A stretch of DNA of 64,000 bases from Gammaproteobacteria bacterium (GTDB lineage Bacteria > Pseudomonadota > Gammaproteobacteria > Ga0077536), in assembly GCA_030833185.1 (NCBI GenBank), contig JAURHQ010000002.1, forward strand, positions 4,870 to 68,869. Direction: 5' to 3'. The notes under the pieces are model-generated. The model was given only the letters and a program-made list of their open reading frames with translations, searched no databases and had not been told where the DNA came from. This document shows positions 43,097 to 43,963 of this stretch, piece after piece; positions within the stretch are counted from its first letter, which is position 1, and every line of letters starts with the position of its first letter. The translations under genes and the position numbers were made by a program.

Positions 43097-43963
43097 TCAG
43101 CCGGGCTTGGCGTCCAGACGGGTTTTGCGCAGCACCCCGCCGGCGGCGGCGTGCGGCGTGCGCAGCAGGCTGTCGGCGGCTTTTTCAAGCTCGCGGGCTT
43201 CATCTGCCAGTCGCGCTGCCGCGCGCATCATTTCGTGGCCGGCTGCAACCATGGTGACGTAGCGCGCCGGGTCTTGTTCCTTGAAGCAGCCGTCCGCCGT
43301 CACGGCAGACACGGTCTCCGCCAGACTCAGCGCTGCATAGGCCTTGGCGGCCGCATACGGGTTGCCGAAGCCGCCGGCAGTGACCGCCTTGTCGGCGGTG
43401 ACGGTCAGGGTCGGATAGCTGGGCGGGGTGCCGGCGCGAAGGGCGTCGATCAGCCCGTCGAGCGTGGTCTGCACCAGTCGCAGCACGCCGCTCGCCGCCA
43501 GCACCTTGATCACGTCGGCGTTGAAGAGGCTCATTTCGGTCGGGTCGAGAAATTCGCGTCGCGCGCCAATCATGGAATCCGCCGGGAAAATCATGAAGCC
43601 CTGTCCTTCGGGAACGTTCATGACCTGTTTGCCCTCTTCGTTTTTCTTGAAGAAGGCTTTTTTCGACGGGCCGTCAGACAGCACGACCAGCGGAATCCCG
43701 GCGGCGGCGATGGCTTTGCGGGCAGCCGCAGGGCCCGGCAGGGCGGCGTTGGGGCTAACCAGAATGACCAACTGCGGTTGCCACGCCAGCAGCCCTTCGG
43801 TCGGACCCTGACAGGATTGCGGATCGAGCTTGGCGCCGCAGGTCCAGGCGCGGGTGTCGATGTCTTCGCGGTCCGCGCGCTCATCGAGCAGCAGGTCGAG
43901 CAGCGGCGCTGCGCCGATGCAGCCCAGTTTGAGCACGCCGAGTTTGAATGCGCCGTGGGACAT
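43097..43963 (-). CDS. homologue of archaeal F420-dependent methylenetetrahydromethanopterin dehydrogenase (Mtd family)
   Basis: 288 aa. '[23 protein letters not shown]', '[35 protein letters not shown]' and '[47 protein letters not shown]' match my recollection of methanogen Mtd sequences over the full length. GGAG RBS, and 6 nt upstream of Anbu. Confidence 0.7.
   Translation of the reverse strand: [288 protein letters not shown]

Follow-up and report, generated by a model that had tools for sequence, protein, structure and literature searches.

The 64-kb stretch of contig JAURHQ010000002.1 analysed here (the window, meaning that whole stretch) contains, on its minus strand, a gene for a member of the archaeal-type F420-dependent methylene-tetrahydromethanopterin (H4MPT) dehydrogenase family (Mtd), which lies directly upstream of the gene for the proteasome-like peptidase Anbu. 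Its host is an uncultured gammaproteobacterium close to the namesake genome of the GTDB order Ga0077536, for which facultative methylotrophy has been predicted. We think it likely that the gene encodes a functional F420/H4MPT-type Mtd, horizontally acquired and of Asgard-like ancestry, which acts in the one-carbon (C1) and F420 metabolism of this methylotroph-like bacterium, and that Anbu, co-expressed behind it, owes its place to a lineage-specific accident of gene order. This differs from the proposal made in a first-pass annotation of the same DNA, which saw in the gene a recruited Mtd fold that could serve the Anbu/amidoligase system as a fifth part rather than C1 metabolism.

Family, fold and ancestry of the gammaproteobacterial Mtd

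The open reading frame (ORF) begins with ATG, specifies 288 residues behind a GGAG ribosome-binding site and includes in its translation all three peptide motifs quoted by the first-pass annotation, whose description of a clean gene thus holds (Table 1); when related loci were compared, GGAG or AGGAG was also found at this position. The product name given by that annotation is borne out by the family models. Pfam PF01993 (MTD) matches residues 6-287 along profile positions 1-273 of 274 (E=1.4e-104, 349.8 bits, cutoff 25), the NCBIfam equivalog NF002162 scores 338.1 bits (cutoff 297) and the Methanopyrus kandleri enzyme (PDB 1qv9) aligns with residues 10-283 at E=1.2e-67. By contrast, the MtdA and MtdB families gave no Pfam or NCBIfam match, the sole matches being to F420-type MTD models. 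The anticipated structural likeness holds as well: an AlphaFold model built with 27 homologues (pLDDT 82.9, pTM 0.81) was matched by Foldseek to 1qv9_A at E=6.5e-25 with template modelling (TM) scores of 0.85/0.86, the next-best PDB match reaching a TM of ~0.3. Because it is above the curated cutoffs, full length and of the same predicted fold, the ORF is by these measures a genuine, full-length member of the archaeal-type F420-dependent methylene-H4MPT dehydrogenase family.

Compared with the known enzymes of this family, from M. kandleri (EC 1.5.98.1; PDB 1qv9, 3iqe), other methanogens and Archaeoglobus, the window protein (known from sequence and model) has ~43% identity over the full length. 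It differs from them in its aerobic-type proteobacterial host, in clade-specific exchanges (Y123F, A242G, N15C and others) and in standing alone behind a sigma-70-like promoter element, whereas the known genes lie among methanogenesis genes. The NAD(P)-dependent MtdA/MtdB enzymes of methylotrophs carry out what is predicted to be the same step (methylene-H4MPT to methenyl-H4MPT) in bacterial formaldehyde oxidation, but do so with an unrelated fold and another cofactor, and the window protein matches PF01993 only.

As for its spread, 2,456 homologues, archaeal ones counted in, came up in a protein search at E<=1e-10. The best 120 of the homologues listed (90%-identity clusters) range in length from 287 to 305 aa, with 288 in almost every case, and none falls below 64% identity to the window Mtd; the organism-named entries among them are labelled as metagenome-assembled genomes (MAGs) of Gammaproteobacteria, and the NCBI pipeline already names such MAG proteins Mtd. 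A scan of GTDB with one genome per species yielded 80 loci (numbered with the prefix L below), 47 of them bacterial (all MAGs), 11 Asgard and 22 from other archaea, with identities to the window Mtd of 58-63% (Asgard), ~54% (Archaeoglobus) and 45-51% (methanogens). No homologue was found on any PLSDB plasmid. Among the contigs L001, L015, L019, L024, L028 and L054, several bear the record titles 'Klebsiella pneumoniae', 'uncultured Klebsiella sp.' or 'Enterobacteriaceae', which look like pipeline artefacts, gene content and synteny pointing to uncultured environmental Gammaproteobacteria.

In a neighbour-joining (NJ) tree, bacterial and Asgard Mtds form one clade in 60/60 bootstraps, with Archaeoglobus as its sister. 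Bootstrap support is 87% for the main proteobacterial clade and 23% for bacterial monophyly; since four divergent proteobacterial sequences branch apart from the main clade, a single transfer is not established. The nearest relatives, from Thorarchaeota and Hermodarchaeota MAGs, likewise count 288 aa and carry the same switches as the window Mtd. Unlike the latter with its proteobacterial setting, they are encoded on contigs of 41-46% GC among archaeal neighbours (TackOD1, TrmB, AFOR and, near Mtd on one contig, an FrhB-like F420 subunit), and these contigs are genuinely archaeal. That Asgard-archaeal Mtds appear to be the closest relatives of the proteobacterial clade fits horizontal acquisition.

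Turning to individual residues, we let family-conserved columns stand in for the F420 and H4MPT sites. Non-Asgard archaeal Mtds have 97 alignment columns with conservation of at least 90%; in 76 of these, the same residue is found in 90% or more of the bacterial Mtds, and 27 bacterial Mtds share 100 invariant alignment columns. The switches Y123F, A242G, N15C, G100S and P73A are common to bacterial and Asgard Mtds, and the alignment columns hold no lineage-specific change beyond those common to the Asgard enzymes. The ratio of nonsynonymous to synonymous divergence (dN/dS) between the window Mtd and nine relatives is 0.07-0.15, rough values given a dS of ~1 or more and near saturation; against loci without Anbu it is 0.07-0.12, no higher than against Anbu-bearing ones. 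Because its residues are conserved and dN/dS is this low, Mtd is a conserved family member under purifying selection and no decaying remnant. A foreign origin and pathway partners that are not nearby are what one would expect of an acquired archaeal gene without current function, kept by linkage alone. Such dN/dS values at this dS, the 100 invariant columns, the spread of the family through uncultured proteobacterial MAGs and the conservation of both the ribosome-binding site and a promoter-like element (see below) leave that option with next to no credit, however, and given such selection and conservation we regard it as refuted in effect.

Links to F420 and H4MPT metabolism

If the assignment holds, the window Mtd would catalyse reversible hydride transfer between methylene-/methenyl-H4MPT and the deazaflavin F420. 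It may then serve as the Mtd step in H4MPT-linked formaldehyde oxidation of the host and feed F420H2 to F420-dependent reductases. Elsewhere in the family, direct links to F420 genes do occur. In L044 (JADFPU010000127.1, 2492-8394), cofD, cofE, cofC, fbiC and Mtd follow each other in one direction, with scores of 291 bits for CofD (cutoff 257) and 1077 for the bifunctional CofGH encoded by fbiC (cutoff 1018). In L057, a luciferase-like monooxygenase (LLM) of the F420-dependent class (TIGR03559, 354.7 against a cutoff of 335) and a SnoaL protein precede Mtd, and in L054 an LLM of the same type stands immediately before it. Within the close subclade, L089/L019 (GCA_964555355.1), with its BoxB-Mtd-Anbu layout, has a partial LLM (L089:3-737) ~9 kb from Mtd that scores 229.5 with the F420-dependent LLM model TIGR03619 (cutoff 166.9), while the luciferase-like genes near Mtd in L083 stay below every NCBIfam cutoff.

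Some further features of these loci are recorded here in their own right. The cof-Mtd run of L044 is preceded by a KamA-like radical SAM aminomutase, and that MAG has another copy of Mtd (L060), which comes after XDH/CODH-like FAD and molybdenum cofactor (MoCo) subunits. In L089/L019, two M14 carboxypeptidase genes separate the partial LLM from a box-type CoA ligase.

FbiC, when searched with the L044 protein, is widespread (at least 8,000 candidates). In its closest relatives (L090-L092), cofC-fbiC lies by genes for an XDH-like molybdoenzyme and an F420-PPOX protein, with no Mtd next to it, and for this reason the cof-Mtd linkage is not general. The cluster in these Gammaproteobacteria MAGs (L090, 275-8181; L091; L092) comprises XDH-like FAD, 2Fe-2S and MoCo subunits, an enoyl-CoA hydratase, cofC and fbiC, flanked downstream by an F420-dependent PPOX-class gene (TIGR03618) and upstream by an LLM; it is possible that it specifies an F420-linked molybdoenzyme pathway.

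On the H4MPT side, the sister genome LNEL is informative. Its locus L007 (LNEL01000044.1, 'Gammaproteobacteria bacterium Ga0077536') encodes an Mtd 83% identical to that of the window and has the same order of genes, namely DUF2126, ATP-grasp/alpha-E, transglutaminase, Mtd and Anbu, facing alpha-E and ATP-grasp. For this genome, XoxF, Fae (EC 4.2.1.147), Mch (3.5.4.27) and Ftr (2.3.1.101) have been reported, and its annotation claims 'the whole gene cluster' for turning formaldehyde into formate by way of H4MPT (PMC8121065). Other MAGs of the order Ga0077536 have been called methylotrophs or potential methanotrophs, and an H4MPT/tetrahydrofolate (H4F) pathway is predicted for them (PMC12636513, PMC8371827). 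According to the first-pass annotation, a full H4MPT/F420 pathway in which the gene is the ordinary Mtd would speak against recruitment by Anbu; with the H4MPT genes reported for LNEL, at least half of such a pathway is accounted for.

Several observations weigh against placing the window Mtd in C1/F420 metabolism. As the first-pass annotation had said of the whole 64 kb, the window, with every sizeable ORF annotated, has no gene of the fae, mch, ftr, fhc or cof kinds; CofC, CofD, CofE and FbiC probes had no tblastn match in it. Nor was a cof gene found in the close-subclade loci, and in most bacterial loci the 10 kb around Mtd hold no H4MPT/F420 gene. Direct linkage of cof genes and Mtd was seen in one MAG lineage only, whose Mtd (L044) is 57% identical to that of the window and sits on a separate branch. 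The H4MPT evidence is second-hand, coming from a Swiss-Prot-based annotation of the sister MAG that is silent on an NAD(P)-type MtdB (PMC8121065), and Mascotti et al. speak of 'a few eubacterial-derived proteins', none experimentally characterized (PMC8518648). Finally, the tight spacing of Mtd and Anbu in 17 related loci implies co-expression, a classical signature of a functional link (see below).

Most bacterial Mtd genes are solitary and found in variable contexts. At least seven loci of the clade with 65-71% identity have a HiPIP gene followed by Mtd and then by convergent FHA, DUF3391/HD-GYP and nucleoside-transporter genes (HiPIP-Mtd loci L020, L021, L026, L027, L029, L030, L032, L040, L043; ~9.3-13 kb in locus coordinates); in another lineage a guanylate cyclase gene lies beside Mtd, and queA-tgt is also among its contexts.

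One might argue from such solitary, non-C1 settings (HiPIP, FHA/HD-GYP, guanylate cyclase, queA-tgt) that the bacterial/Asgard-type clade has been neofunctionalised, keeping the Mtd fold and hydride transfer with another substrate/cofactor pair in bacteria, for which dephospho-H4MPT or H4F, riboflavin-pathway-derived Fo in place of F420, or a nicotinamide would be candidates. Clade-specific changes at methanogen-invariant positions (Y123F, A242G) may be seen in the same light, but these two are common to Asgard Mtds on genuinely archaeal contigs, one of which has the FrhB-like F420 subunit, and 76/97 conserved columns are kept. Likewise, the lack of cof genes in the window and close-clade loci and the reviews that give Mtd as archaeal only would suit a change of cofactor, yet Mtd is directly linked to cofD/E/C plus fbiC and to F420-class LLMs in other loci, exceeds the NCBIfam equivalog cutoff and has H4MPT genes reported alongside it in the sister genome. 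To our minds, neofunctionalisation is therefore unlikely, though it has more to be said for it than the other alternatives we considered, and a functional F420/H4MPT-type Mtd is what we favour.

Linkage of Mtd and Anbu

The ORF downstream of Mtd does encode Anbu, as the first-pass annotation had it: while a Pfam search of the ORF (42362-43090, minus strand) found no match, it matches the PDB Anbu structures 5nyw (1.1e-65), 5lox (4.4e-63) and 5nyj (6.7e-62). The distances given there are also right, with the Anbu ATG 6 nt past the Mtd stop and the Mtd start 84 nt past the transglutaminase stop, all on the minus strand. The Anbu operon was reportedly described by Valas and Bourne in 2008, Iyer et al. 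in 2009 and Piasecka et al. in 2018. Its make-up of four genes (ATP-grasp, alpha-E, transglutaminase and Anbu), likewise stated in the first-pass annotation, is on record (PMC6376114), and all four canonical gene types occur around the window Mtd, which itself is not in the described operon. In the Anbu clade of the window, unlike in that operon, Anbu convergently faces an ATP-grasp/alpha-E pair, and Mtd occurs only where Anbu is at least 77% identical.

How tightly Mtd and Anbu are coupled depends on where one looks. Anbu is directly 3' of Mtd in the window and in nine genome loci (L001, L002, L003, L006, L007, L008, L015, L018, L019), and 1.4 kb from it in L022. Where Anbu is at least 77% identical to that of the window, Mtd is directly upstream in 8/8 metagenome loci with upstream sequence, and within the close lineage no locus was seen with Anbu and without Mtd. 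In most of the 17 related loci (nine genome, eight metagenome) 2-19 nt lie between the Mtd stop and the Anbu start. The genes overlap in the longer gene call of L019, whose 288-aa reading has, like L015, a gap of 52-53 nt. The close physical coupling noted in the first-pass annotation therefore recurs, and from the spacing Anbu is probably co-transcribed with Mtd in this lineage. Beyond close relatives, however, the adjacency is not found: the subclade in which Mtd shares 76% identity or more with that of the window is the only one with Anbu/amidoligase genes next to Mtd, neither Anbu nor amidoligase genes were seen in any of 25 other bacterial Mtd loci (53-71% identity), and none of 71 loci with Anbu of 60% identity or less had Mtd (53 of these have at least 900 nt upstream).

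Even inside the subclade, nine loci with enough downstream sequence (L004, L005, L009, L010, L011, L012, L014, L017, L024) have Mtd without Anbu, three of them (L004, L010, L017) without any amidoligase gene, and L008 keeps the Mtd-Anbu pair with no amidoligase genes nearby. Anbu-less loci have hairpins after the Mtd stop instead. On the branches of an NJ tree built for the subclade, loci with and without Anbu are interleaved, which would mean several losses of Anbu and the amidoligase genes with Mtd retained. Judged as a member of the system, then, Mtd does not co-occur with Anbu across Anbu-bearing genomes, and its retention does not depend on Anbu and the amidoligase genes. That Mtd is often without Anbu, and Anbu in this lineage never without Mtd, argues against Mtd as an accessory of Anbu, for an accessory would show the opposite.

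The surroundings of Mtd are more constant than its association with Anbu. Clustering of flanking ORFs gave a backbone with CoA ligase, flavodoxin, regulator, BoxC and BoxB on one side of Mtd and HpcH, SoxYZ-like, thiL, nusB and ribH on the other. This backbone is fixed. The amidoligase and Anbu genes vary, with amidoligase cassettes inserted now on one side of Mtd, now on the other. BoxB is the gene directly before Mtd in loci without an amidoligase cassette, and in L049 (65% identity) Mtd adjoins the SoxYZ-thiL-nusB-ribH block without Anbu. By comparing the 150 nt upstream of Mtd between loci we found a conserved consensus match to a promoter (Table 1), which occurs once in the window against 0.01 expected; across ~1.1 Mb of locus sequence (2.24 Mb with both strands counted), 10 of its 11 matches sit 60-101 nt upstream of Mtd. 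Loci in which Mtd lies behind the transglutaminase gene (window/L016, L001, L002, L003, L007), BoxB (L006, L010, L011, L019) or another gene (L022) have the element alike. A generic promoter/terminator scan gave nothing above chance and did not call this element. The stop codon TGA of the transglutaminase gene falls within the -35 hexamer TTGACG (44048-44051), the amidoligase cassette thus abutting the Mtd element to the base, and the same junction is seen in L001 and L002. From this we infer that Mtd may be an independent transcription unit and that Anbu would be expressed from the promoter-like element of Mtd in this lineage.

In the scenario we envisage, Mtd holds a fixed chromosomal place, flanked by the box (benzoyl-CoA) genes on one side and by the hpcH-soxYZ-thiL-nusB-rib cluster on the other, and has its own promoter-like element; amidoligase cassettes and Anbu would have gathered around it in one lineage, to be lost repeatedly. 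Anbu lies behind Mtd and is probably read from the promoter-like element of Mtd, and their coupling is therefore best seen as gene layout plus co-expression rather than as membership of Mtd in the Anbu/amidoligase system.

Could the Mtd fold nonetheless have been recruited as a dedicated fifth component of that system, for cofactor-dependent modification, substrate delivery or as a scaffold, with no C1 role? The 6-nt gap, the tight or overlapping spacing kept in relatives and the recurrence of the order transglutaminase-Mtd-Anbu or Mtd-Anbu in nine genome and eight metagenome loci invite this idea, as does the fact that Anbu of the lineage is never seen without upstream Mtd (8/8). This linkage is nevertheless limited to one lineage (0/71 other Anbu loci, 0/25 other bacterial Mtd loci), in which nine loci retain Mtd without Anbu, some without any amidoligase gene and with dN/dS unchanged. 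The pair in L008, with no amidoligase genes nearby, also counts in favour of the idea, as do an Anbu without a known substrate or activator (PMC6376114) and 64 kb without C1 or F420 genes. Yet Mtd has a promoter-like element of its own whatever gene precedes it, the residues conserved in catalytic archaeal Mtds are retained with no lineage-specific changes beyond Asgard-type ones, the family elsewhere accompanies F420 biosynthesis and F420 enzymes rather than amidoligases, and an H4MPT pathway has been reported for the sister genome (PMC8121065). Narrow linkage, Mtd loci without Anbu, the element of its own and the F420 links elsewhere thus lead us away from the proposal of the first-pass annotation, and we hold a dedicated fifth component to be improbable.

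A milder version, in which the co-expression implied by the tight spacing reflects a real functional link, with Anbu regulated or acting together with an F420/C1 redox enzyme (Mtd as partner or scaffold, or Anbu under C1/redox stress), strikes us as quite improbable, too. On present evidence, Mtd is not to be added to the Anbu system and the adjacency is best read as a lineage-specific layout around a functional Mtd.

Other genes of the window and significance

Table 1. Positions of Mtd, Anbu and other features in the window
Feature	Position	Strand	Basis or remark
Mtd-family gene, 288 aa (proteobacterial/Asgard-like clade of the F420-dependent methylene-H4MPT dehydrogenase family)	43097-43963	-	PF01993, NF002162, 1qv9, fold, dN/dS
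Ribosome-binding site GGAG	43972-43975	-	8 nt 5' of Mtd ATG; read from sequence
Promoter-like element TTGACG-N12-ATTGCGATAAA	44023-44051	-	-35 TTGACG, 17-nt spacer, -10 GATAAA (TTGACG-N17-GATAAA)
Anbu (proteasome-like Ntn hydrolase), 242 aa	42362-43090	-	ATG 6 nt past Mtd stop; PDB Anbu matches
Transglutaminase-like protein	44048-44929	-	Bact_transglu_N + Transglut_core; last gene of upstream amidoligase cassette
Fusion of circularly permuted ATP-grasp and alpha-E	44926-47364	-	CP_ATPgrasp_2 1.5e-150, Alpha-E 1e-52
Transglutaminase + DUF2126 putative amidoligase	47397-50717	-	DUF2126 1324 bits, Bact_transglu_N, Transglut_core
Second amidoligase pair: ATP-grasp; alpha-E	39965-41410; 41414-42349	+	Pfam; converges on Anbu
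BoxB (benzoyl-CoA 2,3-epoxidase subunit)	50900-52324	-	TIGR03225 746.6 bits, cutoff 499; synteny clusters C5, C12, C19, C17, C4
HpcH/HpaI-family aldolase	39177-39926	+	Pfam + NCBIfam; synteny clusters C3, C6, C11, C18, C22
Fused SoxY-SoxZ carrier	38322-39134	+	TIGR04557 (quinoprotein dehydrogenase-associated SoxYZ-like) 242.8 bits, cutoff 140
Class-I adenylate cyclase	28270-31131	-	
PA0069-family radical SAM protein	61832-62914	+	NF033668

Two different amidoligase systems converge on the one Anbu gene (39965-50717, both strands), separate ATP-grasp and alpha-E genes on the plus strand and transglutaminase-DUF2126, the ATP-grasp/alpha-E fusion and transglutaminase on the minus strand. The ATP-grasp/alpha-E pair facing Anbu is, as read from gene order, the ancestral partner layout of this Anbu clade, and most of the 71 distant Anbu loci without Mtd have the same convergent arrangement of Anbu and alpha-E/ATP-grasp. 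In such distant loci, Anbu faces either amidoligase system convergently and is not the last gene of a co-directional four-gene operon.

Otherwise the window is an ordinary housekeeping region of 65% GC, with purL, purB, gyrA, pheA, aroA, cmk, rpsA, lapB, pyrF, mfd, a class-I adenylate cyclase gene, glyA and nrdR as well as ribD/E/BA/H, nusB, thiL, the SoxYZ-like carrier and the HpcH/HpaI aldolase, past which the SoxYZ-like, thiL, nusB and rib operon genes follow. Beyond the amidoligase genes come the box cluster and then COQ7 and DegP. This aerobic benzoyl-CoA cluster (50900-57139) consists of BoxB, a BoxC-like enoyl-CoA hydratase, a regulator of the HTH-shikimate-kinase type, a flavodoxin and an AMP-binding CoA ligase. 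The adenylate cyclase is of the class-I (enterobacterial) type; like the PA0069-family radical SAM protein (491 bits, cutoff 360), it is unrelated to the Mtd finding. In searches for longer assemblies reaching past the window edges, PurL and Smr gave no record, and the radical SAM gene came up on short contigs only. We did consider whether the adjacent rib operon, as a supply of Fo precursor, is meaningful for Mtd, but left this as a coincidence, the backbone being ordinary housekeeping synteny. The SoxYZ-like carrier, whose type is not that of SoxYZ in thiosulfate oxidation, hints at metabolism by a pyrroloquinoline quinone-dependent (methanol/alcohol) dehydrogenase in the host, which would fit a methylotroph lifestyle.

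For the biology of Anbu, the outcome of our analysis is mainly negative, and our literature search found no paper that links Anbu with Mtd. For Mtd, a family already known, what is new here is the size of its proteobacterial clade, the Asgard affinity of that clade and its links to F420 genes. A review of F420 gives Mtd as archaeal, with occurrence in Euryarchaeota, TACK and Asgard archaea, and names Fno in Betaproteobacteria and Fgd in Alphaproteobacteria as the routes to F420H2 in Proteobacteria (PMC8498797); an F420-type mtd in bacterial formaldehyde oxidation was not reported in the literature we searched. If the gammaproteobacterial enzyme is active, it would bring an F420-dependent step, new in this context, to H4MPT-linked C1 oxidation in bacteria, and Mtd would be a new route to F420H2 in Proteobacteria.

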